Shown here: piece by piece, positions 4,218-36,860 of the stretch
How positions within the stretch are numbered: the first letter of the stretch is position 1
Layout of the letters: every line of letters starts with the position of its first letter
Source of the DNA: a virus
Virus record (IMG/VR): IMGVR_UViG_3300045988_114701
Span: 1-43,465 of that record
DNA length: 43,465 bases
Reading direction: 5' to 3' (one strand)
Program-made: the position numbers and the translations under genes
The notes under the pieces: model-generated
Databases searched by the model: none
The model's input: only the letters and a program-made list of their open reading frames with translations
What the model was told of the DNA's origin: nothing

Positions 4218-4413
4218 CGCGCCATGCCGCGACTGCGTGAGCCGCGAGGTCGGCTGTCACGCGGGATGCGAGAGATACAAGGCATATGCCGAGCGGCGCG
4301 AAAGAGTGCGGCAGAATCGGCAGGACTTTATCATCGAGAGGACGGGCGAAAAACGCCGCCATCAGCGGTGGCTGGATTATGAGAAGCGCAAGAGCAAGGG
4401 AGGGGCGACATGA
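4201..4413 (+). CDS. Small Cys-rich basic protein (about 70 aa; start GTG 4201 or 4210)
   Basis: ORF track; CRDCVSREVGCHAGCERYKAY 4-Cys motif. The stop forms an ATGA overlap with the next gene (4410-4413). Confidence 0.55.
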   Translation: MIAVNDAPCRDCVSREVGCHAGCERYKAYAERRERVRQNRQDFIIERTGEKRRHQRWLDYEKRKSKGGAT

Positions 4414-4982
4414 GGATTTTGGCGATAGACCCCGGAACGACGCAGAGCGCGTATGCGCTGCTCAGCGATGAGTATCAAGTGCTGTCGGCGGACAAAGTCG
4501 AAAACGGCATAATGATGGACATCATCGCGTCAACTCCGGGAATCGACGCGGTCATCATCGAGGACATGGAGCCGCGATATCCGCGAAACGGAAAGGACAG
4601 CAGCGCGGCGGGCGCAATCGTCGGGGCAAGCACATACACCACGCTCAAGTGGATGGGCAAATTTGACCTGACGGCACAGGTGCGGGGCATTGCCGTACGC
4701 TGGATTTACAGGCGGGACGAGCGGGCGGCACTCATCCGCAAAAAGGAGCTTCCGGCGGACGCGCCGAAGCACGCAGACGGTCAGATTCGCGCCGCGCTGA
4801 TTGCGAGGTTTTCGGTTCATGACAAGGTCAATGGCAAGGGAACGAAAGCAAAACCGGACACGTTTTACGGCGTGTCCGGCGATATGTGGCAGGCGATTGC
4901 GGTAGGGGTGACGTGGCTTGACAAGCAGAGGACGGGAGGCGGCGACGGATGCGGATCGAAAAGAAGGACGCGCAGGCGTTGA
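4410..4982 (+). CDS. RuvC-like Holliday junction resolvase
   Basis: MRILAIDPGTTQSAYALL (catalytic Asp in an RNase H-fold first strand) and ..AVIIEDMEP acidic motif; GGGAGGGG RBS at 4398-4405. Confidence 0.75.
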   Translation: MRILAIDPGTTQSAYALLSDEYQVLSADKVENGIMMDIIASTPGIDAVIIEDMEPRYPRNGKDSSAAGAIVGASTYTTLKWMGKFDLTAQVRGIAVRWIYRRDERAALIRKKELPADAPKHADGQIRAALIARFSVHDKVNGKGTKAKPDTFYGVSGDMWQAIAVGVTWLDKQRTGGGDGCGSKRRTRRR

Positions 4983-5383
4983 TTGACTGCGGCTTTGCGG
5001 CGTACGATTACAAAACAGAGCTAGAACTGTACGACAACCGCGACGCCAAGGGGAGCGGATTTGACGGCATGCCCAAGCGGAGAGGGGCGGCGCGAGGACT
5101 TGACGATGAGCTTGTCCGCGAGCAGAACGCGAAAAAAAAGCTGTATGAAAAGCATACGGCTTTTTTGCGTGCCCAGCGGCGGGCGATGAAAGCACTGGAT
5201 GCAATCGTCGCGGGGCAGCCTCAGCAGGGCGAGTATATCATGGGCTTGCGGTCGTTTCTGAAGCTGTTTTATGTAGACGGCATGCCGATGAAGGCGGCGT
5301 GGAGGGAGGCGGGCATTGCGGAGCGGACGGCGCGGAGATACAAGGCGCAGGTCGTCAGGGCGGCGAAGGGCAAGAGGGCGTGA
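4949..5383 (+). CDS. Putative phage transcriptional regulator with a C-terminal sigma-70 region-4-like HTH (late activator candidate)
   Basis: ORF track. The C-terminus is ..GMPMKAAWREAGIAERTARRYKAQVV. At 144 aa it is the last gene of the early operon, resembling ArpU/RinA-type regulators in size and position. Confidence 0.45.
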   Translation: MRIEKKDAQALIDCGFAAYDYKTELELYDNRDAKGSGFDGMPKRRGAARGLDDELVREQNAKKKLYEKHTAFLRAQRRAMKALDAIVAGQPQQGEYIMGLRSFLKLFYVDGMPMKAAWREAGIAERTARRYKAQVVRAAKGKRA

Positions 5384-5729: not shown

Positions 5730-6248
5730 TTACTTGTTATGTCTGGCATAGTATCCATATTCGTCGCCGATGGGGAAGCGTCCGCCTGTTATCCACCAAG
5801 TTTTGACCGACAGCGAAACGGTTTTGCGCTCGCCGTTGTCGGGATAGGACAGCTTGACGGTATGGAGAGCGGACATCTGGGACACGGCATCAGCTAGGAT
5901 GCCGTCCGTGCTCTGCCCCGGCGTGAAATCCCACACAAGCGTCGGCGTAATGATATAGCAATAATTACCTTTGCCGTCCGTCGTCTGGTGACCTTTGCGG
6001 ATCAGCGCGTTGAGAGCGTCGCGGGAGATGCCGAGATCGTCAGGGATATCGACAGCCACGCAAAACATGATGATGTCATGCTCGTGTTCAACGCGGTTGA
6101 GAGCAGGGGGGCGTTCGGAGCGGTTAAGTCCGCCGAAAAAAGCCGAGATCGCATATTTGTCGGGCAACTGAGGCGGGGCAAAGCTCTTTGCGCAATACGG
6201 GGCGCAGGAGTGAAGAGCCATGTTGAATACATATTCCATCAAAGTCAT
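5730..6248 (-). CDS. Hypothetical protein (172 aa; start 6248 or 6239), second gene of the cassette
   Basis: ORF track; an AAAGGA RBS region lies just upstream. I recognise no family. Confidence 0.65.
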   Translation of the reverse strand: MTLMEYVFNMALHSCAPYCAKSFAPPQLPDKYAISAFFGGLNRSERPPALNRVEHEHDIIMFCVAVDIPDDLGISRDALNALIRKGHQTTDGKGNYCYIITPTLVWDFTPGQSTDGILADAVSQMSALHTVKLSYPDNGERKTVSLSVKTWWITGGRFPIGDEYGYYARHNK

Positions 6249-6290
6249 TCCTTTCTTTCCCCTAACACGGGGGACGCTGATATTATAGTA

Positions 6291-6689
6291 TCACAATGTG
6301 CCAAGCATTGCGACACTTATACGGGTCACGCGGTCACAAGCCTGACAGAGTGCGCGCGCTTGGGTATCAAGCCACTCTTCGCGGCTGTTGGGTCTGCGCT
6401 CGCCGTTGCGGGACTTGCGCAACTCAGACGGGGAGCAGAGACGCTCGGCGATGTCCTTGTTATAGATCAAGGATGAGCCGCCCCAGCTGTACGCCGCCCA
6501 GTCTTTCGCGCCGTTGAGCATCCACGCCCGGCACTCGCTGCCCGTCTGGGGGTCGCGCCCCTCATAAGAGGCGTAAGTCTCCAGCTGCTCCACCAGCTCG
6601 AGCGCGTATTGCGTCACGCCGCGATCCCACGCGCTACGGTCTTTGCGGGCTTCCAGCGCTTCGCGGATGCTGTCATAAGTGGTCTTCAT
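6291..6689 (-). CDS. Hypothetical protein (132 aa), first gene of the cassette
   Basis: ORF track; RBS AAAGGAAC 8 nt before the ATG. The segment NGAKDWAAYSWGGSSLIYNKDIAERLCSPSELRKSRNGERRPNSREEWLDTQARAL looks like a conserved mobile-element domain, but I cannot name it. Confidence 0.7.
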   Translation of the reverse strand: MKTTYDSIREALEARKDRSAWDRGVTQYALELVEQLETYASYEGRDPQTGSECRAWMLNGAKDWAAYSWGGSSLIYNKDIAERLCSPSELRKSRNGERRPNSREEWLDTQARALCQACDRVTRISVAMLGTL

Positions 6690-6760
6690 AATATCGTTCC
6701 TTTCTGCCCCTCTTGGGGGGCGGTCGCGGTTGTCTGGGCTGTTGCCCTTGTGATGGCTAT

Positions 6761-6789
6761 AGTATATCCGTAGACGGATAGAAACGCAA
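6761..6789 (-). promoter_or_regulatory. Sigma-70-type promoter for the minus-strand cassette
   Basis: Minus strand reads TTGCGT (6789-6784), a 17-nt spacer, then TATACT (6766-6761). The spacer contains the palindrome TATCCGT-CT-ACGGATA. Confidence 0.55.
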
Positions 6790-6863
6790 TACCGGAATAT
6801 TTCACAAATATAAATCTACGGATATGCGGAACAGTTGTGCAACTTGTATATATTGACGGATAT
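6765..6863. promoter_or_regulatory. Operator array: three sites built on ACGGATA(T)
   Basis: Perfect inverted repeat TATCCGT-AG-ACGGATA at 6765-6780, ACGGATAT at 6818-6825, and ACGGATAT at 6856-6863 overlapping the -35 of the plus-strand promoter. Confidence 0.5.
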
Positions 6864-6881
6864 TGTCCAATATGATATGAT
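6853..6881 (+). promoter_or_regulatory. Sigma-70-type promoter for the RHH gene
   Basis: TTGACG (6853-6858), a 17-nt spacer, then TATGAT (6876-6881), inside the run TATGATATGATATGAT. Confidence 0.55.
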
Positions 6882-6915
6882 ATGATTATCACAAGACAAG
6901 AGAGGAGCGGGAAAC

Positions 6916-7143
6916 GTGCCGATATCTGACGCGCAAAAGCGTGCTGCGGTCGCTTACAACCGGCGGCGCGACAGTATCACGATCAGACCATCTAAGACTG
7001 ACGGCGGCGCAGTGCGTGCCGCCGCTGCTGCTGCTGGTCAGCCGGTGCAAGTCTACATCATGCAGGCTTGCACCGAGCGCATGCAGCGCGACGGCTTCAC
7101 GCCTCCAGCAGATGACACAGCTGGAGACGATAAGACCCCATGA
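6916..7143 (+). CDS. Ribbon-helix-helix (Arc/CopG-like) DNA-binding protein (75 aa)
   Basis: GTG start with GAGGAG 8 nt upstream. The pattern KRAAVAYNRRRDSITIRPSK..GAVRAAAAAAGQPVQVYIMQACTERMQRDG fits strand, helix A, helix B of small RHH regulators. Confidence 0.6.
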   Translation: MPISDAQKRAAVAYNRRRDSITIRPSKTDGGAVRAAAAAAGQPVQVYIMQACTERMQRDGFTPPADDTAGDDKTP

Positions 7144-7148
7144 CAACA

Positions 7149-7181
7149 CCCCGATGGGCAGACGCTCGCCGGGGCTTTTTT
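7149..7181 (+). terminator. Weak candidate terminator after the RHH gene
   Basis: CCCCG (7149-7153) pairs with CGGGG (7170-7174), followed by CTTTTTT. The stem is only 5 bp with a 16-nt loop. Confidence 0.35.
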
Positions 7182-7190
7182 GTTCGCTTC

Positions 7191-7274
7191 AAGCCGATCC
7201 CCTCGCACGCGCGTCTCCCCTCGCATGAGGGGAGTGGATTGAAATAAGCCGATCCGCTCCCCCCTCGCACGCGC
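7191..7274. repeat. Direct repeats AAGCCGATCC...CCCTCGCACGCGC (two copies) flanking a hairpin
   Basis: Copy A is 7191-7212 and copy B is 7246-7274 (same sequence with a GCTCCCC insertion). CCCCTCGCA occurs three times. The hairpin CTCCCCTC-GCAT-GAGGGGAG lies at 7215-7234. Confidence 0.85.
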
Positions 7275-7311
7275 TGGCAAGGTTGGCAAGGTGGGACACG
7301 TTGCGGCATGC

Positions 7312-7334
7312 TTGACAGTATGATACAGTATAAT
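7312..7334 (+). promoter_or_regulatory. AT-rich promoter-like island TTGACAGTATGATACAGTATAAT (non-canonical spacing)
   Basis: Consensus TTGACA (7312-7317) and consensus TATAAT (7329-7334) are separated by only 11 nt. No good -35 lies 17 nt upstream of the TATAAT. It could be an activator-dependent -10-only promoter. Confidence 0.3.
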
Positions 7335-7529
7335 CGTCCCCGACGGCGGGACGAGGTCGCGGACTTCGTCGCCGCGTCGAGCGGCGATTATACGTTTTCG
7401 CGGCTGTGCGGCTTGCGCTGTGCAGCCGCTTACTTATATCTAGCTGCTTATCGAGCGCACAAGCACGCGCACCAGCTGACGCGGGGCAGAGCTGACGCAC
7501 GCAGGGGCGCAGGCGTGTAGCACGTTGGG

Positions 7530-7563
7530 CAGGCGCAGAGGGAGAGCAGGCGCAGGGGAGAGG
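7530..7563. repeat. Tandem 17-bp repeat CAGGCGCAG(A)GGGAGAG x2
   Basis: 7530-7546 CAGGCGCAGAGGGAGAG and 7547-7563 CAGGCGCAGGGGAGAGG. Related GGGCGCAGGC occurs at 7505 and 7643. Confidence 0.85.
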
Positions 7564-8044
7564 CTTCACCGGGCGACGATGTGCGCGGGGGGCTGGGGGG
7601 GTGCTTATGATATAGGTAGAGACGGCACCAGCTCGGGCGGACGGGCGCAGGCTCACAGCTGCGGACGCACCAGGCGGGCGGATGCGCCGACGGGCGTGCT
7701 CACAATAGGTAGGATTTGCGGCGATTATGCTGCGGATTATGACGCACGGTAGGGCTGATGGGGTAATAATGTAGATATTGCTGAGATTGCCGAGGGCTTG
7801 CGTGTGGGATGTGTACCCGCACAGGGCAAGCCCTTGCCCACACGCTGACGGACAGGCAGACGCAGGCGACGCGCGAAGGGCAAAATTTTGAAAGCAGATT
7901 CGCGGAAGGGCGGCGGGGGATGCGGAATTGACCACCTCAGGCGCGCCTACGGGCGAAGGACATATGCCTCCCCGCCCTGCGGGTGTTCCCCCTGCCGGTC
8001 AAGCAGGAAGCAAAAACGCGAAGAGAGCAGAACACATAAGCACT

Positions 8045-8079
8045 ATTCCAGAACTCACACGAGTTTCTGGAATTTTTTT
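8045..8079 (+). terminator. Strong intrinsic terminator 39 nt upstream of terS
   Basis: ATTCCAGAA (8045-8053) pairs with TTCTGGAAT (8065-8073). The stem is extendable by CTC/GAG and runs straight into T7 (8073-8079). Confidence 0.85.
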
Positions 8080-8117
8080 ATACCCATAGGGGCAGGTCAA
8101 AAAAAGGAGGGATAGGC

Positions 8118-8561
8118 TTGGGAAAGAACAAGGCGCGTACGCCGCCGCCGAACAGAAAACTGACGGACGAGCAGCGCAGAGAGGTTGTACGCAGGTATGT
8201 AGAGGAGTACGAGACGGTCAGCGAGCTGGCACGGGAGTACGGAGTAGACAGGGCGACGATTTACAGAGTGCTGGGCGCGGAGGAGCACGCGGGAAGAATC
8301 AAGGCACTGTCGGATGCGAGGCTGGCGCAGGCAAAGATCAGGATTCTTGAGCAAGTGCCTGCGGCACTCGACCGCAACGAGGAAATTCTAAACACGAATT
8401 ACGACCCTGCATTCCAGTATCTGTGGCAGAACGCCATCCGGGACACACTGGACAGAGCGGGCATCAAGGCGACGAAGGACGAGAAGCAGGACATCAGTAT
8501 TTCTTTTGCGAGTGATGGGTTTGAGCTGGGCATGCCGGAGAGCGGGACAGACGAAGAATGA
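8118..8561 (+). CDS. terS: Terminase small subunit
   Basis: TTG start 7 nt after AGGAGG (8105-8110). The N-terminal HTH is LTDEQRREVVRRYVEEYETVSELAREYGVDRATIYRVL. It lies immediately upstream of terL with an ATGA overlap. Confidence 0.8.
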   Translation: MGKNKARTPPPNRKLTDEQRREVVRRYVEEYETVSELAREYGVDRATIYRVLGAEEHAGRIKALSDARLAQAKIRILEQVPAALDRNEEILNTNYDPAFQYLWQNAIRDTLDRAGIKATKDEKQDISISFASDGFELGMPESGTDEE

Positions 8562-9964
8562 GCAGCATTGTGTTTGACTACAAGCCGACGGCGAAGCAAC
8601 GGCTGTTTCACGCGAGCAAGAGCAACGAGATTCTGTACGGAGGCGCGGCTGGCGGCGGTAAGAGTTACGCCATCTGCTGGGATGCATTCATGCGCTGTTT
8701 GAAATACCCGCGAACAAATGCGTACCTGTTTAGGCGGACATATCCTGAATTGGAGCAGACGCTTATCAAGACGATGCGCGACATCGTTCCGGAAGAGTTG
8801 GGCAGGTATTACAGCGGAAACCACGAGATGAGGTTCTTCAACGGGAGCGTCGCCCGGTTCTGCCATTTGAGCGATGAAGGGACATGGCGCAATTATCAGG
8901 GTGCACAGATACAGTGGCTGTACTTTGACGAGCTGACGCACTTCAGCGAAAGCATGTACAACTTTATCAAGACACGTTTGAGGGCACCGAAAAACCTGAA
9001 TGTAAATCCGTGTACGCGATGCGCAAGCAACCCCGGCGGTCCGGGACATGGCTGGGTAAAGGCGCGATTCGTGGACAGCACGGACGTGGGGAAACGCACC
9101 GTGGTGCAAGATACGGAGTATCTTGCTCAAAACGGGAAAATGAAGAAAATGAAATCCATTTGCGAATATATCCCGGCTACTGTATACGACAACCCATACA
9201 TCGACGATATGTATATCGTCGAGCTGCAAAACAAGCCGTCGAAGCTGAGAGACGCCATGCTGTACGGGAAATGGGAAGCGTTCGAGGGGCAGGCGTTCCC
9301 GGAATTTACGAACGACCCTGAGCATTATAAGGACGGGCTGCATACGCACGTCATCGACCCGTTCGACATTCCGCTGCACTGGACGCGGTACGTCAGCTTT
9401 GACCACGGCTTTTCACGTCCGTTCTCGTTCGGCGCGTGGGCGGTTGACCCTGACGGCAGGGCATACCGATACAAGGAACTGTACGGCTGCAAAAAGGGAG
9501 AGGCGAACGTCGGCTTGATGCTCACGCCGGGCGAAATCGCGGCGAAGCTGGCGGACTGGCTTGAGCCGGAATTCAGAGAAGGCATTCATATCACGGGCAT
9601 TGCAGACCCTGCCATCTGGGACGAGAGCCGGGGAACGAGCGTAGAGGAGCAGATCCGCAAGGTCTTTTCCGGCGTCACGTTCCGCAAGGGCGACAACACG
9701 CGGATGCCGGGCAAGATGCAGGTGCATGAGCGGCTGCGGTTTGACGAGGACGGGCGACCGATGATGTACATATTCAGCAACTGCACGGAATTTATTCGCA
9801 CGATTCCGACGCTGTGCTACGACGAACACAAGGTTGAGGACATCGACACGGCGGGCGAAGACCACATCTACGACGAGACGCGATACTTTTTAATGTCAAG
9901 ACCGCTCGCGCCGAAGATCGTCGCGCCCAAACCGAAGCGGAAAGCGTGGAATCCGCTGGACTAA
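8558..9964 (+). CDS. terL: Terminase large subunit
   Basis: Walker A LYGGAAGGGKSY and Walker B-like WLYFDELTHF. The 468-aa protein has a C-terminal nuclease-type region (..DHGFSRPFSFG.., ..GEDHIYDETRY). Confidence 0.92.
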   Translation: MSSIVFDYKPTAKQRLFHASKSNEILYGGAAGGGKSYAICWDAFMRCLKYPRTNAYLFRRTYPELEQTLIKTMRDIVPEELGRYYSGNHEMRFFNGSVARFCHLSDEGTWRNYQGAQIQWLYFDELTHFSESMYNFIKTRLRAPKNLNVNPCTRCASNPGGPGHGWVKARFVDSTDVGKRTVVQDTEYLAQNGKMKKMKSICEYIPATVYDNPYIDDMYIVELQNKPSKLRDAMLYGKWEAFEGQAFPEFTNDPEHYKDGLHTHVIDPFDIPLHWTRYVSFDHGFSRPFSFGAWAVDPDGRAYRYKELYGCKKGEANVGLMLTPGEIAAKLADWLEPEFREGIHITGIADPAIWDESRGTSVEEQIRKVFSGVTFRKGDNTRMPGKMQVHERLRFDEDGRPMMYIFSNCTEFIRTIPTLCYDEHKVEDIDTAGEDHIYDETRYFLMSRPLAPKIVAPKPKRKAWNPLD

Positions 9965-9973
9965 GGAGGATGT

Positions 9974-11809
9974 ATGAGAAAGAGGGATTCCCCGCCGGGG
10001 GATATCAGACAGAGCAAGCCGGAGGAATTCGGTGAACAGCCGCTCTCGCCGGAGGAAAAGGCGCTCGTAGGCAGGGCATACGCGCTGTTTGATTTTTTCA
10101 ACAACGAGCTGCGCGACGCACACAAGGCCATGCGTGCGGCACGCATGATGCGCCAATTGCAGCAGGAGGAGCGGAGCTTGACCGCACCGGTCACCAGCAC
10201 GCTGAACAGCTGCATTGACAACGTCATCGCCGACCAGATTGACAACATGCCGGAAGCGGTCATGGTGCCTGAACGCGAGGAGACGGCGCAGAGCGCGGAA
10301 GAGATGAGCGACGTTGTCAGCTATGCCCTGTATCAGGCGGGATTCAGGGGGACGTATCAGACGCTGATGGAGGACGCGGCGGTCACGGGAACGGGCATCG
10401 CGCAGGTGTTTTGGGACGACGACCTTGAGGACGGCGACGGCATGATCAACGTGCTGGCGTGGCATCCGGAGGACTTCTACCCCGACCCGACGCAGGAAAA
10501 CATTCAGGACGGACGCGCATGCTTCAAGGTGACGCACACGACGGTTGCGTGGGTCGAAGAGCATTACCCGCACGCACGCGGCTATGTACGCGCCGACCCC
10601 AACAATGACGATACCGATTACAGCCTGCAAAACATCGCGGAGGGCGACGAGGGCGTGATGCTGCTGGAATTCTGGTATCGACGGTATGACGCGGACAAGC
10701 GTCGGCACATGGTGCATATGGCGCAGTTGGCGGGTCACGCGCTGCTGTACAGCACGGAGCTTGGCTTCGGCGGCGCGGGAAAGACGGAATACAAAGACGG
10801 CGTATACGCGCACGGCAGGTATCCGTTTGTCTTGTACAAGTACAGGAGCGTATGGCGCAAGCCGTTCGGCACGGGGCTTGTACACGACTACTACGGCACG
10901 CAGAACATGATCGACAGATGTCTCAAGTACATCGACGACAACGCCCGCGAATCGAGCGTGCAGCGGCACTTTATCCGGCGCGGAAGCGGCGTCAATCCGG
11001 AAGACGTTGCGGACATGCGCCGCACCATCATCGAGTGGGAGGGCAACGATATTCGCGAGGCGATTCAGACGGTGCAGGCGGCACCGCTGAACGGGCAGGT
11101 CTATCAGGCAATGAATTACCTCGTGGATTCGATGAAGCAGGACTGCGGACAGAACCAGTTCAGCCGCGGAGAAGGCGGACTTGGCGTTACGGCTGCGGCT
11201 GCCATTCAAGCCCTTCAGGAGGCGGGCGGCAAAACGACCCGCTGGCACACGGAGCAATTCAAGAACGCTTTCCGCGAGATGGTCGAGCAGATGCTCTGGG
11301 TATTGAGCGACTATCTGGACGCAGAGCGCAAATTCAGAATCGTCGGCGGATGGGATTCGAGTGGGAATATGAAGGATAAGCTCGTGCAGCTCATCGCGCC
11401 GATGCGCGACAACGGCAGACTGCCCAAGCCCGCGTACACGGTGCGCGTGCAGGTGCAGAAGAACAACCCCTTGCAGGTACAGGCAGACAACGAATTCCTC
11501 TTGCAGGTTGCGCAAATCTGCGGACAGGCGGGTCAGGCACTGCCGCCCGAATCGGTCATTCGCCTGATGGAGGGATATCGGACAAAGTCGAGCGTGCTGC
11601 GCATGGTCGAGCAGAACAGCGCACAGCAGGCTCTCATTGCTCAGATGCAGCAGCAGATTGAGCTGCTTACCAACCAGAACACGGGCATGCAGGCGGTCAT
11701 CGGCGAGTACAAAAACATGCTCGCGACGCCCGCCCAGCTTGAAGCCAAGCAGCAGGAGGCGGACTATAACCCGATGCTGCAAGCAACCAAGGACGCCGAG
11801 AACGGCTGA
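9974..11809 (+). CDS. Portal protein
   Basis: 611-aa ORF directly after terL and before scaffold and capsid; AGGAGG RBS. Called on size and position. Confidence 0.8.
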   Translation: MRKRDSPPGDIRQSKPEEFGEQPLSPEEKALVGRAYALFDFFNNELRDAHKAMRAARMMRQLQQEERSLTAPVTSTLNSCIDNVIADQIDNMPEAVMVPEREETAQSAEEMSDVVSYALYQAGFRGTYQTLMEDAAVTGTGIAQVFWDDDLEDGDGMINVLAWHPEDFYPDPTQENIQDGRACFKVTHTTVAWVEEHYPHARGYVRADPNNDDTDYSLQNIAEGDEGVMLLEFWYRRYDADKRRHMVHMAQLAGHALLYSTELGFGGAGKTEYKDGVYAHGRYPFVLYKYRSVWRKPFGTGLVHDYYGTQNMIDRCLKYIDDNARESSVQRHFIRRGSGVNPEDVADMRRTIIEWEGNDIREAIQTVQAAPLNGQVYQAMNYLVDSMKQDCGQNQFSRGEGGLGVTAAAAIQALQEAGGKTTRWHTEQFKNAFREMVEQMLWVLSDYLDAERKFRIVGGWDSSGNMKDKLVQLIAPMRDNGRLPKPAYTVRVQVQKNNPLQVQADNEFLLQVAQICGQAGQALPPESVIRLMEGYRTKSSVLRMVEQNSAQQALIAQMQQQIELLTNQNTGMQAVIGEYKNMLATPAQLEAKQQEADYNPMLQATKDAENG

Positions 11810-30427: not shown

Positions 30428-30748
30428 ATGAAAGCTATGTTGTCTCAGCCTATGAAAGGTAAAACAAACGAAGAAATTATCGCCACCCGTGAACGCTCTA
30501 TTGCCGTACTCAAAGAGCGCGGATATGAAATCATCAATACCCTGTTCACCGACGAATGGTATTCGCAGGAAGCCATGAAGAAACGCGGTGTTGAAAACAT
30601 TCCCTTGTGTTTCCTCGCGAAGTCGCTTGAAAACATGTCTTTGTGTCATGCTGCTTACTTCTGCAAAGGCTGGGAGAATGCACGCGGATGCAAAATTGAA
30701 CACGAGGTTGCCAAGGCTTACGGAATGACGATTATTTACGAAGATTGA
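30428..30748 (+). CDS. DUF4406-like (nucleoside 2-deoxyribosyltransferase-like fold) protein, low-GC moron
   Basis: MLSQPMKGKT..(helix)..and the C-terminal FCKGWENARGCKIEHEVAKAYGMTIIYE match the G-W-E-x-S/A-x-G-x-x-x-E signature recalled for DUF4406. It is visibly more AT-rich than its neighbours. Confidence 0.55.
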   Translation: MKAMLSQPMKGKTNEEIIATRERSIAVLKERGYEIINTLFTDEWYSQEAMKKRGVENIPLCFLAKSLENMSLCHAAYFCKGWENARGCKIEHEVAKAYGMTIIYED

Positions 30749-30761
30749 AAGGAGGATGACC

Positions 30762-31211
30762 ATGAACAACTGGTCGGGAATCTGGAACAAAATACTCAAG
30801 ATGGCGGCACTTGCGGGCGGAGCAATCGCGGGTGCAATGGGAGGCTGGGACACGTTGCTGATCGTACTGTGCTACATGATGGGCATTGACTACGTGACAG
30901 GGTGCATTTGCGGGATGATCGGCAAAAGCCCGAAGACGGACGGCGGGAAGCTGGACAGCAAGACGGGCTGGCACGGCTTGCTCAAGAAGGCGGTCATGCT
31001 GGTGGTGGTCTTTATGGCGGCACAGCTTGACCGCGTGATGCCGGAAGGGACGCGGGTTTTCCGCGACGCGATGGCGATGTTCTACATCGCGAACGAGGGA
31101 CTGAGCATCACCGAGAATCTGGCAATCATCGGCGTGCCGTTCCCTGCGTTTGTCAAAAAGGCACTTGAACAAATTAAGCAGCAGAACGACGAGGGCACGG
31201 AGGGAGACTGA
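30762..31211 (+). CDS. Holin (phage_holin_4-type, toxin secretion/lysis holin family)
   Basis: ORF track 30756..31211. ATG 30762 is preferred: 6 nt after AAGGAGG, whereas ATG 30756 abuts the RBS. Contains ..MMGIDYVTGCICGMIGKSPKTDGGKLDSKTGWHGLLKKAVMLVVV..FYIANEGLSITENLA. Confidence 0.85.
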   Translation: MNNWSGIWNKILKMAALAGGAIAGAMGGWDTLLIVLCYMMGIDYVTGCICGMIGKSPKTDGGKLDSKTGWHGLLKKAVMLVVVFMAAQLDRVMPEGTRVFRDAMAMFYIANEGLSITENLAIIGVPFPAFVKKALEQIKQQNDEGTEGD

Positions 31212-34376: not shown

Positions 34377-34397
34377 GTCATAATCCGCGGCATAATC
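34377..34397. repeat. attP arm repeat, copy 1: GTCATAATCCGCGGCATAATC
   Basis: 19/21 identical to 34598-34618 in direct orientation. Each copy is CATAAT-N6-CATAAT. Confidence 0.8.
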
Positions 34398-34421
34398 GGT
34401 GTAAAAACCTGCTTACACAGT

Positions 34422-34464
34422 GTTAAATCCCGCTTACATCGCGTAAGCGGGATTTAACATTTTT
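34422..34464 (+). terminator. Strong intrinsic terminator closing the cargo cluster
   Basis: Perfect 16-bp stem GTTAAATCCCGCTTAC / GTAAGCGGGATTTAAC with an ATCGC loop, then ATTTTT. Confidence 0.85.
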
Positions 34465-34488
34465 CCCTTGTGAAATAAGGAAAAAATA

Positions 34489-34516
34489 AAGGAATCTAGC
34501 TATTGCTAGATTCCTT
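34489..34516 (-). terminator. Minus-strand terminator placed just downstream of the tRNA 3-prime fragment
   Basis: Perfect 12-bp stem AAGGAATCTAGC / GCTAGATTCCTT with a TATT loop. On the minus strand it is followed by TATTTTTT. Confidence 0.7.
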
Positions 34517-34519
34517 GTT

Positions 34520-34551
34520 TGGTGCCGGTGGCGGGGGTCGAACCCGCACGG
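34520..34551 (-). other. attP core: 3-prime fragment of a tRNA gene (T-arm, acceptor strand, CCA)
   Basis: Minus strand reads CCGT-GCGGG-TTCGACC-CCCGC-CACCGGC-A-CCA (T stem, T loop GTTCGA, T stem, 7-nt acceptor strand, discriminator, CCA). No matching 5-prime acceptor GCCGGTG or D-arm lies upstream. Confidence 0.75.
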
Positions 34552-34597
34552 AAACGCCCTAAAAGCTCTTATTTTACTAGACTTTTTATTTCGCCGT

Positions 34598-34618
34598 GTC
34601 ATAATTCGCGGCATAATT
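34598..34618. repeat. attP arm repeat, copy 2: GTCATAATTCGCGGCATAATT
   Basis: See copy 1. This copy overlaps the int stop codon at 34617-34619. Confidence 0.8.
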
Positions 34619-35696
34619 ATTTGTACTGGCATATTTTGCCGCCGAGCAGCGCGGCGTTGTGAGACGCAATCGCGTCGGCTACGGCATCGCGCTTTTTGTT
34701 CATCGTGTGCTGATAGACACGATTGAGCATATCGAGCGTCGCGTGTCCCATGCGCTCCTGAGCGTACTTTGGCGGGACGTTCAGGGCAGCCATGACGGAT
34801 GCGGCATAGTGGCGCAGATCGTGAAAGCGACCGGGGAGATTGAGCTTTTCACAGAGACGCATGTAAGAATCTGTGATGCTGGCGGGCGTCATGCCAGTGA
34901 TGGTCTGCGGCGGCTGGTGACCGAAATTGCGGACAGCGGAGACGACGAGCGCATCCAGACCACGCAGGACGCGGTTACCGCTGCGGGATTTGGGGGGCTT
35001 GAGCTGGTAGTCGCCGCATTCATCCATGGCGAGGGATTTGTTGATGGTGACCGTTCCTGCCTCGAAATCGAAGTCATCCATCGTCAGGGCGGCGATCTCG
35101 CCGCGGCGCAGACCCAGCGTTGCGGCAAGGACGACCGCGACGTAAAGGTTGGTGTTGTGTGCGCGGAGATAAAACAGCGCACGCTGCACGTCTTCATCCT
35201 GCGGGATGGTCATCTCTTTGCGGTCGGGTTCGGGCAGGATCAACCCTTGCGTCGGCGGCTCGATTCCGGCGTGCTTCACGGACGCGGCGAGAAAGCCGAG
35301 CTTATTGCGGACGGTTTTCGGGGTTGCGCCGGATCGCGTCCAGTCATTGACCACAGATTGCAGTTCAGCGCGTGAGATTTTGGCGATGGGCTTTGATTCG
35401 AGAGCTTCAAAGCCGTTGCGCCGCATGGCAGCATAGCCGCGGATGGTGGACGGAGAGCGACCGGCGGAGCGGCAGGTATCGAGGTATTTATCCATCGCCT
35501 GAGCCAGCGTCACACGCCCCGCCAGATTCGCGGAGAGGGCGTTCTCGCGGTTTTCGTCGAAGTCGGCAATCATTCGCCTGACCTCGGCCTTCGTCGCGGC
35601 AGAAAGGGAGATATAACGATATCCGCCGGACGGGAGACGCTCGCCGGTGGAGACGCGGGCGCGGTATCCGGTCACGGTTTTTTCAATTTTCGGCAT
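34617..35696 (-). CDS. int: Tyrosine integrase
   Basis: LGLRRGEIAAL (Arg I), FHDLRHYAAS (H-x-x-R), GHATLDMLNRVYQH (catalytic Tyr), and an N-terminal SAM-like arm/core-binding region. It lies adjacent to the tRNA fragment. Confidence 0.93.
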   Translation of the reverse strand: MPKIEKTVTGYRARVSTGERLPSGGYRYISLSAATKAEVRRMIADFDENRENALSANLAGRVTLAQAMDKYLDTCRSAGRSPSTIRGYAAMRRNGFEALESKPIAKISRAELQSVVNDWTRSGATPKTVRNKLGFLAASVKHAGIEPPTQGLILPEPDRKEMTIPQDEDVQRALFYLRAHNTNLYVAVVLAATLGLRRGEIAALTMDDFDFEAGTVTINKSLAMDECGDYQLKPPKSRSGNRVLRGLDALVVSAVRNFGHQPPQTITGMTPASITDSYMRLCEKLNLPGRFHDLRHYAASVMAALNVPPKYAQERMGHATLDMLNRVYQHTMNKKRDAVADAIASHNAALLGGKICQYK

Positions 35697-36310: not shown

Positions 36311-36517
36311 ATGAAAGAGAGCCGCCCGAAGAACGTCACCTTACACAGAGCGCGGAGAGCCGCGCCGACCACCACCCCAATAGAGTTTGAGCGGGAGAGA
36401 AAGGAAATCATCGCGATTGCAGAGATGCTGACCGACGGTGAAGACCTTTACTACCTACTCGGAACGGCGAGGGCACTGCTTAAATTAGAAATGAAGCGTA
36501 CCCCACCTGTCACTTGA
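36311..36517 (+). CDS. Hypothetical protein (68 aa) convergent with the repressor gene
   Basis: ORF track 36134..36517. ATG 36311 is preferred: AGGAGG at 36298-36303, 7 nt upstream. Confidence 0.5.
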   Translation: MKESRPKNVTLHRARRAAPTTTPIEFERERKEIIAIAEMLTDGEDLYYLLGTARALLKLEMKRTPPVT

Positions 36518-36860
36518 TTTCCTTCTTTAAAAAGGAAATCATTTCGTCCAGCAGTTCATCAGGCATCGCAGAAAGGATGCGGATGAGCTGCTTTTTGTTT
36601 TCGCTCGCGCCACGCATGATATTCGCCAAGCGTTCTGCGTCATCTTCGGATTGCTTGCGCTTCATGGCACCTTCGCCGGTGCGAAGCCAGTGTTCATCAA
36701 TTTGAAACTCAAGGCAAATATCCGAAATAGTTCTGTCGCTTGGCATTTTTGCGCCGGAACACAACTCGGAAACAAATGGTTGAGATAGTTTCAGCCTTTT
36801 AGCAAAATCGACTTTTTTCAGATGGTACTCATTGAGTATCATCATAATTCGCTCGTTCAT
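36510..36860 (-). CDS. XRE-family HTH repressor (CI-like)
   Basis: LKKVDFAKRLKLSQPFVSELCSGAKMPSDRTISDICLEFQIDEHWLRTGEG; it has its own consensus promoter. Confidence 0.85.
   Translation of the reverse strand: MNERIMMILNEYHLKKVDFAKRLKLSQPFVSELCSGAKMPSDRTISDICLEFQIDEHWLRTGEGAMKRKQSEDDAERLANIMRGASENKKQLIRILSAMPDELLDEMISFLKKEIK

Follow-up and report, generated by a model that had tools for sequence, protein, structure and literature searches.

The region at positions 7144-8117 of the IMG/VR virus record IMGVR_UViG_3300045988_114701, analysed here over its full 43,465 nucleotides (the window), lies directly upstream of the terminase gene terS and raises the question of what a phage maintains at this place if not a protein-coding gene. 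An initial annotation found no credible gene here and proposed a large structured RNA, a late-operon leader controlled by antitermination, or a packaging recognition region. The absence of a credible gene holds, and nearly all the features that it described were found where it had placed them. On balance, we favour the reading that a temperate Clostridia phage, whose terminase is of the headful type, keeps in this gap a non-coding region controlling its late operon for packaging and morphogenesis. The region would be composed of three layers: an inserted CRISPR repeat, a putative leader RNA, and a module within the leader that resembles the attachment site of the phage. Sequence identities, conservation, covariation and spacing are direct observations, on which the proposed transcription, antitermination, protein binding and recombination route are based.

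Conservation of the region upstream of terS

An element of 0.7-0.9 kb is found upstream of terS in 23 of the 23 relatives examined, and it is of full length in every relative with enough flanking DNA, down to 60% identity of terS. The small gene ORF75 directly precedes it in most relatives (tblastn matches adjoining the element at 22 loci). What is conserved within the element are short nucleotide islands and not codons. No ORF in 7144-8117 is conserved among 22 homologous regions, in which ORF positions and frames vary, and no frame stays open throughout the relatives in the best-conserved 3' part. Comparison with the closest relative (L013, terL 99% identical) revealed 15 indels, 14 of which are not multiples of three. 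The Pfam search with the ORFs of this region (e.g. 7189-7935 on the minus strand, 248 aa, and 7888-8115 on the plus strand, 75 aa) gave no match, and the sole PHROG match, to 7888-8115, is weak (E 0.005). The earlier view that these ORFs are artefacts is borne out. The candidate coding readings, namely the 248-aa minus-strand ORF, the 75-aa ORF at 7888-8115 and a product MPPRP... from the invariant CATATGCC, were rejected on the grounds that their starts or frames are not conserved.

The islands are separated by two hypervariable, purine-rich tracts (Table 1), and several metagenome contigs end inside them. Between 7300 and 7900 the GC content is 0.60-0.68 and the GC skew is +0.19 to +0.26; the previously noted tandem 17-mer (7529-7541/7546-7558) and G6/G7 runs (7587-7601) are present. 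The blastn search of GenBank phages with 6900-8120 gave no match, and the gapped pattern GACCACC-N15-45-GCCTCCCCG used on IMG/VR is a loose one, with a single true member (L162) among 117 stored loci.

Table 1. Sequence features between ORF75 and terS, and the canonical attachment site of the phage
Feature	Position	Strand	Evidence or remark
ORF75 (75 aa), small upstream gene with its own sigma-70-like promoter (6853-6881)	6916..7143	+	phrog_13890, unknown function
Intrinsic terminator of ORF75, hairpin then T-run	7149..7182	+	-16.5 kcal/mol; conserved in relatives
TTC directly 5' of duplicate copy 1, matching the host CRISPR PAM	7188..7190	+	Sequence; PAM inferred from array spacers
Duplicate copy 1 (protospacer remnant)	7191..7212	+	Lacks 7 internal nt of copy 2; 5 nt short of 34-nt spacer length
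Solitary CRISPR repeat GTCTCCCCTCGCATGAGGGGAGTGGATTGAAAT	7213..7245	+	33/33 identical to array repeats
Duplicate copy 2	7246..7279	+	Begins exactly at repeat 3' end, spacer-like; runs into ancestral phage sequence
Tandem 9-10 bp direct repeats TGGCAAG / GTTGGCAAG / GTGGGACAC	7275..7299	+	Candidate late-activator sites
Promoter-like island: TTGCGG (7301-7306), 17 nt with invariant TG (7321-7322), TAcaGT (7324-7329)	7301..7334	+	22-sequence alignment
Long imperfect hairpin of ~28 bp, base GUAUAAUCG/CGAUUAUAC	7328..7393	+	Paired in 95% of cells; 4 pairs with double changes; invariant G.U
Second hairpin followed by U-rich tract (terminator-like)	7400..7429	+	Covariation helices; z -5.2
Hypervariable purine-rich tract 1, including tandem 17-mer	7440..7560	+	0 to ~200 nt in relatives
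Conserved box AGGCTTCACC, small hairpin, G-runs GGGGGGCTGGGGGGG	7561..7601	+	Alignment, covariation helices
Hypervariable tract 2	7602..7715	+	Alignment
Tandem arm-type-like sites CGATTATGCTGCGGATTATGACG	7722..7744	+	22/23 identical to 34399..34377 (minus) beside attP
Core-type dyad GTGGG-ATGTGTA-CCCGC (5-7-5)	7804..7820	+	Exactly 60 nt after the arm pair
3' boxes TTTTGAAAGCAGATT (7886-7900), GAATTGACCACC (7925-7936), ATGCCTCCCCGCCC (7964-7977)	7886..7977	+	Rigid spacing
Strong intrinsic terminator, 38 nt before terS RBS	8045..8079	+	z -5.9; 4 compensatory pairs; invariant T7 tract
terS RBS (AAAGGAGGG) and TTG start codon; terS 8118-8561, terL 8558-9964	8104..8120	+	
Canonical attP next to int (34617-35696)	34377..34617	-	Arm pairs 34617..34598 and 34396..34377; core dyad 34547..34531

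A candidate late promoter and its activator

The 5' part of the conserved unit contains a promoter-like island, in which TG-n-TAnnGT and TATAAT are invariant in the 22-sequence alignment. The TAcaGT element overlaps TATAAT (7329-7334), and TTGACA is located at 7312-7317. The AT-rich TTGACA...TATAAT island noted initially therefore exists as motifs, but the two are 11 nt apart, a distance that rules out a sigma-70 promoter of the form TTGACA-N11-TATAAT, and the promoter scan was negative there. From the alignment we infer an extended -10-type promoter instead.

The order of the parts, in which the terminator at 7149-7182, the direct repeats at 7275-7299 and the promoter-like island at 7301-7334 lie upstream of terS, is that of the Ltr-controlled terS promoters, where a terminator is followed by two to four direct repeats, the promoter, and terS with the late operon (PMC3753634, PMC3152322). 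The likeness to systems of the Ltr superfamily (RinA, ArpU, LtrC; PMC3753634, PMC3152322) extends to the repeats varying by clade with the candidate activator, as the sequence of the tandem repeats changes between clades in step with the clade of ORF144 (4949-5383). The latter is the candidate late activator that would act on these repeats. It has a weak match to PHROG 36 'transcriptional regulator' (E 2.6e-4) and no sequence match in Pfam, NCBIfam or PDB, and the C-terminal HTH of its AF2 model weakly resembles sigma region 4 (Foldseek E ~1). In contrast to the Ltr systems, a conserved structured leader of ~0.75 kb with a strong terminator separates the promoter from terS, and ORF144 is neither adjacent nor significantly matched by the RinA, ArpU or LtrC models. 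The proposed late unit would be read in the order of upstream-gene terminator, tandem activator repeats, extended -10-type promoter and a ~0.75 kb transcribed leader.

Covarying hairpins and a terminator define a putative leader RNA

Stable local stems had been pointed out in the region, and their folding is better than chance: 7326-7395 folds at -42.8 kcal/mol (z -5.8 against shuffled sequences), 7398-7432 at z -5.2 and 8036-8082 at z -5.9. The stems first described at 7334-7352 and 7350-7370 are present, but as parts of one long hairpin at 7328-7393. The strong terminator recognized at 8045-8079 was confirmed and found to covary. Across the hairpins and the terminator 88.7% of alignment cells are paired, versus 41-48% with the partner strand slid, and the covariation score of 0.166 compares with 0.109 in shuffles (none of 500 reached the observed value). 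The invariant G.U pairs favour the plus strand, and the whole interval 7328-8079 has z -4.4 on this strand versus -2.9 on the minus strand. Long-range pairs in the global alifold model were unsupported, and only local helices were retained. Pairing of an anti-Shine-Dalgarno CCUCC (7967-7971) with the terS Shine-Dalgarno sequence was rejected as well; both are invariant and hence provide no covariation support.

Between 7334 and 9000 the promoter scan revealed no plus-strand promoter-like site. Judged by its layout, 7275-8117 looks like a late-operon leader requiring read-through, which would open with two stable covarying hairpins and end at an intrinsic terminator just before terS. Since no other plus-strand promoter was seen, the late genes would be expressed only when polymerase reads through, by means of either processive antitermination or a leaky terminator. 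Among the explanations offered initially, the late-operon leader with antitermination gives the best fit, with a unit that extends from the island to the covarying terminator and has no promoter in between. In processive antitermination leaders of the Q/qut or put type, a promoter-proximal element is followed by one or more terminators that stop late expression until polymerase has been modified. The hairpins at 7328-7429 would be compatible with such an element and the terminator at 8045-8079 with such a stop, as would the lack of a promoter further downstream; a candidate antiterminator protein did not emerge. TATAAT forms part of the base of the long hairpin, where a single compensatory change (T/A to A/T in L083, L084 and L089) suggests that the RNA starts further upstream, for instance by read-through from the ORF75 promoter.

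The late leader of lambdoid phages consists of PR', the 194-nt 6S RNA and tR', and is subject to antitermination by Q; phage HK022 uses put RNA. The region described here resembles the lambdoid leader in that a putative promoter and a predicted non-coding transcript precede the late genes, with an intrinsic terminator at the end of the transcript, and in the gene order of RusA-like resolvase, regulator and late leader. It differs in being about four times longer than the 6S RNA, in the lack of a detected Q homologue, and in the presence of integrase-type DNA sites. The putative transcript resembles put in starting with stable hairpins, but has no sequence or structure similarity to it.

An attP-like module within the putative leader

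The central conserved block contains integrase-type sites, which escaped the initial annotation. Tandem arm-type-like sites are retained in 23 of 23 leaders, and in all of these a dyad of 5-7-5 geometry follows them at a spacing of 60/61 nt; the 7-nt centre of the dyad varies. The core dyad of the canonical attP (34547..34531), GCGGG-TTCGACC-CCCGC, has the same 5-7-5 form, is located 50 nt from its own arm pair and lies in tRNA 3'-half-like sequence. The leader profile aligns to the P arm and core of attP with E values of 9e-9 to 1e-6 at the five closest attP loci, the remaining five giving values of up to 8e-4. In addition, leader and attP agree at the second arm site, where both have GAC in six contigs and both have GCC in a seventh.

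These identities suggest that the leader module copies the P-arm and core architecture of the phage's own attP, and its probable ligand would be the integrase or the directionality factor of the latter. In lambda-type attP, arm-type sites flank a core dyad on both sides, and the dyad encloses an overlap of 6-8 bp identical to that of a bacterial attB. As in such sites, the distance between the tandem arm sites and the 5-7-5 dyad is fixed and helically phased; the spacings in the leader and in the phage's own attP (60 vs 50 bp) are one helical turn apart, and the dyad arms match. Unlike in lambda-type attP, only the P-arm-like side has a fixed spacing, the module is not next to int, and the 7 nt at the centre are not those of the canonical attP and change even among close relatives. 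A P'-like ATATGCCTC is present at ~85-165 nt from the dyad, as estimated from box spacings, and because of this variable distance it was rejected as a constant component of an att site; no P' arm at a fixed distance from the leader dyad was found. The location next to packaging genes is reminiscent of loxP near pac in phage P1.

Conserved 3' boxes and the packaging alternative

Downstream of the dyad, the three boxes of the 3' part are spaced by 41 and 36/37 nt in all relatives. The only covarying structure around them is a small hairpin at GAAUUGACCACCU, and the 3' 215 nt as a whole combine rigid spacing with almost no RNA covariation. The constraint on this part may act on DNA, for example as a pac site.

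A broader alternative, in our opinion improbable but the first to be considered, is that the conserved boxes are mainly DNA packaging signals, i.e. pac and small-terminase binding sites placed directly upstream of terS as in SPP1. The adjacency to terS, the headful-type terL (Terminase_6N/_3) with a P22-type portal, and the invariant, rigidly spaced boxes with variable filler in the 3' 215 nt agree with it. On the other hand, the resemblance to the attP arm sites, and not terS binding, accounts for the repeated GATTAT motif, the hairpins and terminator are under RNA-type constraint including G.U pairs, and pac lies inside terS in P22-like phages. We retain the late-operon leader as the preferred reading.

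A solitary CRISPR repeat inserted upstream of the putative leader

The direct repeats at 7191-7274 described initially are real (7191-7204/7246-7259 and 7199-7212/7261-7274), and so is the stem at 7215-7234, but their nature was missed: the stem is the hairpin of a host CRISPR repeat, and the direct repeats are a protospacer duplication that flanks it. The sequence at 7213-7245 is identical over 33 of 33 nt to the repeats of arrays in L069, L070, L071, L072 (13 repeats) and L081 (8-10 repeats), which belong to uncultured Clostridiales and [Clostridium] aminophilum (L070). It is thus the same sequence as the repeats of bona fide arrays with regularly spaced unique spacers, here 33-36 nt in length. 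The array of [Clostridium] aminophilum is directly preceded by Cas2 (PF09827, E 8e-25), and the mini-array of L071 has no cas neighbours. Spacers of the L081 array target the window itself, at 30543-30576 (33/34, TTC PAM), ~31083-31115 (TTC) and ~10720-10752 (CTC). Type I-C systems, which have cas8c and cas5c as signature genes, typically use a 5'-TTC PAM, and their repeats end in ATTGAAAT/C and contain an internal hairpin; here, the hairpin CCCCTC/GAGGGG and the 3' ATTGAAAT, together with the TTC, TTC and CTC PAMs, indicate an I-C-like subtype.

The repeat occurs as a single copy in the window. It is absent, along with the duplication, from seven close and ~16 further relatives, including one with terL 99% identical, and two further samples yielded contigs (L225, L226) with an identical insertion. 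Most likely, the solitary repeat was captured by recombination with a host array. An array with a spacer against this phage site would have recombined with the phage; spacer-by-protospacer integration followed by repeat-by-repeat excision would leave the order PAM-protospacer-repeat-protospacer, and the PAM-flanked left copy would later have been crippled by deletions. As the left duplicate is 22 nt and not 34 nt long, the capture model needs two such later deletions. The predicted array spacer is AAGCCGATCCGCTCCCC(CC)TCGCACGCGCTGGCA; a metagenome scan for the repeat-spacer junction GGATTGAAATAAGCCGATCC found no array with this spacer and gave one chance match on an unrelated contig. Off-target integration by Cas1-Cas2 is a less likely origin, as it predicts a duplication of ~33 bp and leaves the start of the duplicate at a PAM unexplained.

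The solitary repeat may serve as a decoy, in the manner of an RNA anti-CRISPR, or provide homology to host arrays, and may equally be neutral or an escape scar. That it is more than a scar, either an RNA anti-CRISPR (Racr) that functions as such or a pseudo-array with one spacer under selection for its activity, appears doubtful to us. It does share with the viral solitary repeats of Camara-Wilpert et al. 2023 (PMC10651486) the presence of a single repeat in a phage genome without cas genes, the sequence and hairpin of the repeat being identical to those of a host system directed against this phage family, and the I-C-like subtype, for which a working Racr, co-transcribed with its upstream gene, is known (PMC10651486). 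The repeat-bearing lineage also occurs in several samples. At the same time, the repeat is confined to this one lineage. A promoter within ~250 bp upstream served as the selection criterion for Racrs (PMC10651486); here none lies within 250 bp, the nearest plus-strand sigma-70-like site (6853-6881) is 332 nt upstream, and the intrinsic terminator at 7149-7182 stands between. No acr gene was recognized nearby, and PADLOC gave no match for ORF75 and the neighbouring ORFs as defence or anti-defence genes. Also unlike the known Racrs (PMC10651486), the repeat is flanked by a duplicated protospacer with a PAM, a sign that it was recently captured from an array.

Structured RNA and protein-coding alternatives

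Less probable still is a large, stand-alone structured ncRNA of ~750 nt with a function in trans, of the kind proposed for ROOL, GOLLD and OLE-type RNAs, with the terminator ending the RNA gene. The conserved unit is indeed bounded by a promoter-like island and a strong terminator, its plus-strand fold exceeds both shuffles and the minus strand, and several hairpins covary. Nevertheless, a search of the whole window with Rfam 15 gave no match at gathering score (including ROOL, GOLLD, HEARO, raiA and OLE). At E<=10 the best match within 6700-8300 was Collinsella-1 on the minus strand with 19.4 bits (gathering score 35), and the others reached 11.7-16.9 bits, far below gathering, so that the covariance-model check suggested in the initial annotation yielded only chance-level matches. 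Covariation is limited to local hairpins and reveals no long-range architecture, the two internal tracts range from 0 to ~200 nt, the DNA sites of attP recur in the central conserved block with a fixed linear spacing, and no separate terS promoter follows the terminator. The proposal of a large ornate RNA similar to ROOL or GOLLD is accordingly not upheld. A decayed gene, or an unusual real gene such as the 248-aa minus-strand ORF, can be practically dismissed: the ORF stays open within the window and was called by an automatic gene caller on an identical contig, but the family searches, the drifting ORF positions and frames, the frame-breaking indels and the conservation of nucleotide islands in place of codons all contradict it.

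Conclusions

No current database describes the conserved promoter-to-terminator non-coding unit that precedes terS in this family of human-gut Clostridia phages. A practical consequence is that gene callers annotate a spurious 248-aa ORF over the leader region. The leader is a candidate for a new mechanism of antitermination or late control in phages of Gram-positive bacteria.

The presence of attP-type sites inside a late-operon leader is unusual and would tie the integration machinery to packaging or late expression. We put forward only tentatively, and as a rather unlikely combination, that the leader carries a second functional integrase site, an arm pair and a core dyad with a freely drifting overlap, which recombines only with its own copies, and that the CRISPR repeat records the origin of a solitary repeat. 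If so, such a site beside the headful packaging start could allow the integrase to circularise terminally redundant DNA after injection or to resolve multimers, comparable to Cre/loxP in P1. Alternatively, a complex of the integrase or of its directionality factor on this DNA could gate late transcription or packaging on excision.

Solitary CRISPR repeats are known in phages and some of them are RNA anti-CRISPRs, while their origin has so far been guesswork. The repeat described here has kept the marks of its origin, namely the PAM and duplicated protospacer, its absence from a relative with terL 99% identical, and a host system that targets the phage, and these marks make the capture route testable. 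If this route is correct, the arrangement PAM-protospacer-repeat-protospacer would document directly the way in which solitary repeats of phages, as precursors of Racrs, come about.

Conservation and coding capacity of the region upstream of terS

The window represents the whole or nearly the whole genome of a temperate phage, which encodes DNA methylases in addition to the genes listed in the table. The region under study (7144-8117) is bounded by the small gene ORF75 and by terS; a P22-type portal is found downstream of terL in relatives. Homologous regions were gathered through terL relatives in IMG/VR and, by a second route, through terS relatives (60-98% identity) on contigs from ENA and Logan assemblies. 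In every locus with sufficient flanking DNA, a profile search recovers the region at full length directly 5' of terS, and the alignment of 22 sequences (A3) reveals patchy conservation, with short invariant islands between two tracts of 0 to about 200 nt. No ORF within 7144-8117 has a Pfam match, and the sole PHROG match there is a weak one for a 75-aa ORF at 7888-8115. ORF positions and frames vary among relatives, 14 of the 15 indels against a relative with a 99% identical terL are not multiples of three, and no reading frame is open throughout the relatives in the best-conserved 3' part. The absence of a conserved ORF, the frame-breaking indels and the patchy invariant islands show that the region is non-coding and under selection. 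The ORF-poor gap reported in the initial annotation is thus real; the composition, repeats, G-runs, stems and terminator described there are all found in the sequence, and the stems are far more stable than shuffled controls.

A 248-aa Ala/Arg/Pro/Ser-rich ORF (7189-7935, minus strand) lies across the proposed late-operon leader, and automatic annotation of an identical contig predicts it as a gene (L226, 2774-3520). We reject it as a compositional artefact that is absent as a conserved ORF in relatives. Several short metagenome contigs (L085, L086, L087, L088, L090, L094) break off within the leader, for the most part in the hypervariable tracts or close to them; the probable cause is strain-level variation that disrupts assembly, and not physical ends of genomes. 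Between the early genes and ORF75 (5730-6689), two ORFs of 172 and 132 aa on the minus strand, possibly moron-like cargo, have no match in Pfam, PHROG, NCBIfam or PADLOC. One relative (L002, 3319-3843) has an additional 174-aa AT-rich ORF between terS and terL, without counterpart in the window or other relatives, which may be a moron or a homing-type insertion.

Features of the phage genome and of the region upstream of terS
Feature	Position	Strand	Remarks
RusA-like resolvase	4410-4982		
ORF144 (144 aa)	4949-5383	+	after RusA-like gene
ORF75	6916-7143		
Copy 1 of duplicate	7191-7212		directly after TTC at 7188-7190
CRISPR repeat GTCTCCCCTCGCATGAGGGGAGTGGATTGAAAT	7213-7245		
Copy 2 of duplicate	from 7246		first nt exactly at 3' end of repeat
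First hairpin	7328-7393	+	66 nt; base includes TATAAT, with one compensatory change
Second hairpin	7400-7429	+	
Leader tandem arm pair CGATTATGCTGCGGATTATGACG	7722-7744	+	recurs beside int
Leader core dyad	7804-7820		
Strong terminator	8045-8079	+	four covarying pairs, invariant T7 tract; 38 nt before terS ribosome-binding site
terS (HTH type), then terL (Terminase_6N/Terminase_3)	from 8118 onward		
L081 protospacer 3	about 10720-10752	-	roughly 31/35 match; 5' flank CTC
L081 protospacer 1	30543-30576	-	33/34 match; 5' flank TTC
L081 protospacer 2	about 31083-31115	+	28/33 match; 5' flank TTC
Canonical attP	34377-34617	-	adjoins int; tandem ATTATGMC arm-type pairs around tRNA 3'-half-like core (...GTGCGGGTTCGACCCCCGCCACCGGCACCA)
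Tyrosine integrase (int)	34617-35696	-	
CI-like repressor	36510-36860	-	

Proposed late control unit

In nearly all relatives the conserved element is preceded by an intrinsic terminator and, after it, two or three tandem repeats of 9-10 bp; the same layout of terminator, direct repeats and terS promoter is described for the RinA, ArpU and LtrC activators (PMC3753634). The repeats are clade-dependent (GGTTGGCA-type versus GTCTGTCA-type), and their type (7275-7299) runs parallel to the clade of ORF144. The product of this gene, conserved across the phage family, has no Pfam or NCBIfam match; its AF2 model (pLDDT 83.6) contains a C-terminal helix-turn-helix weakly similar to sigma-70 region 4 (ECF -35 binding domains), and ORF144 is a candidate late activator.

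The AT-rich island noted initially is present and invariant in A3, but its TTGACA and TATAAT are only 11 nt apart and were rejected as a promoter pair. The invariant positions (TG at 7321-7322, TAnnGT at 7324-7329 and TTGnGn 17 nt upstream), which overlap TATAAT, fit instead a predicted extended -10 promoter. Since the base of the first hairpin takes in TATAAT and shows a compensatory change, transcription may start further upstream, and the leader RNA could alternatively stem from polymerase reading through from the ORF75 promoter. A promoter scan found no plus-strand promoter-like site at 7334-9000.

Both 5' hairpins are well supported (95-96% pairing, with compensatory changes at several pairs) and contain invariant G.U pairs, which are meaningful on the plus strand only. 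Elsewhere covariation is weak, with the exception of the terminator and a small hairpin around GAAUUGACCACCU. An Rfam search gave no family match, ROOL and GOLLD included. The simplest reading of a structured unit ending at a terminator is a late-operon leader whose terminator would have to be read through, by the same logic as in the lambdoid PR'-6S-tR' unit; no antiterminator was identified. A pair of G-runs (GGGGGCTGGGGGG, 7587-7601, A3 columns about 395-412) shortly after the invariant AGGCTTCACC box is kept on the transcribed-sense strand in nearly all relatives and could form a G-quadruplex or an R-loop.

The attP site and its counterpart in the leader

The window contains nine SGATTATRM motifs, where 1.8 are expected. 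The leader arm pair recurs on the minus strand at 34399..34377 (22/23), with a close variant at 34617..34598; the two lie on either side of a tRNA 3'-half-like sequence adjoining int, the attP of the phage. Two terminator-like hairpins follow its core. ARAGORN detected no complete tRNA in the window, and the phage therefore probably integrates into a tRNA gene, restoring its 3' end. Nine relatives share the attP geometry (arm pair, 50 nt, GGG-N7-CCC dyad, 134-135 nt, arm pair), with differing core sequences.

All leaders (23/23) contain the arm pair, then exactly 60 or 61 nt, then a 5-7-5 dyad G[C/T]GGG-N7-CCC[G/A]N, the centre of which drifts even among close relatives; the arm pair-dyad distances of 60 nt in the leader and 50 nt in attP are one helical turn apart. 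Aligned to the attP P arm and core, the leader profile gives E-values between 9e-9 and 1e-6 at the five closest attP loci, rising to at most 8e-4 at all the remaining ones. In six contigs the second arm site has GAC in leader and attP alike, and in a seventh GCC in the two; a P'-like ATATGCCTC occurs in the leader at no fixed distance. From the arm pair, rigid spacing and dyad shared with attP we conclude that the leader DNA is probably a binding site for the integrase or for a directionality factor. In the 3' 215 nt of the leader, boxes lie at rigid distances (41, 36/37, about 107 and about 29 nt) with neither coding nor RNA covariation, so that a packaging signal acting at the level of DNA would be possible there.

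Probable capture of a host CRISPR repeat

The stem noted at 7215-7234 falls inside GTCTCCCCTCGCATGAGGGGAGTGGATTGAAAT, present once in the window, which matches the repeat of genuine CRISPR arrays over all 33 nt. Arrays of this type, with spacers of 33-36 nt, were found in two uncultured Clostridiales genomes, a Clostridia MAG, [Clostridium] aminophilum, where the array directly follows cas2 in shared orientation, and one IMG/VR contig (L081), three spacers of which match the window. The array identity, the cas2 neighbour and the flanks of the spacer matches indicate a system that is I-C-like and targets this phage family. In the Clostridia MAG (L071, 1822-1921) the repeat forms a two-repeat, one-spacer mini-array, next to which lie genes for a PLP enzyme and an HTH protein; the 8 kb analysed contain no cas genes, and we regard it as an orphan.

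All relatives carry a single copy of ...GCCGATCCGCTCCCCTCGCACGCGC... and no CRISPR repeat; in the window, the repeat separates two copies of the GCCGATCCGCTCCCCTCGCACGCGC-containing sequence. By position, copy 1 displays PAM-protospacer geometry and copy 2 repeat-spacer geometry. An assembly artefact is ruled out by identical insertions in contigs from two other samples; six further contigs have an identical neighbouring gene. We infer capture by integration and excision. The phage would have entered a host array through recombination between its protospacer and the matching spacer, and left through recombination between the two flanking repeats, yielding a PAM-protospacer-repeat-protospacer circle. 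Copy 1 lacks seven internal nt and the last five nt of a 34-nt spacer, requiring later deletions, which would be favoured because this copy retains the PAM. A metagenome scan for the repeat-spacer junction found no host array with the predicted spacer. Judged by the criteria published for RNA anti-CRISPRs (PMC10651486), the solitary repeat shows repeat mimicry but has no promoter within 250 bp, and it lies behind a terminator; an anti-CRISPR function is therefore possible but unproven.

Conclusions

The gap upstream of terS is real and unusual and belongs to no known large RNA family; the best description is that of a conserved control region of the late operon, with a structured leader. Two of its features were beyond the sight of the initial annotation: a host CRISPR repeat, probably captured recently, and a module that copies the P-arm/core architecture of attP. 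The protospacer matches tie the phage to hosts with the same repeat as its solitary copy.
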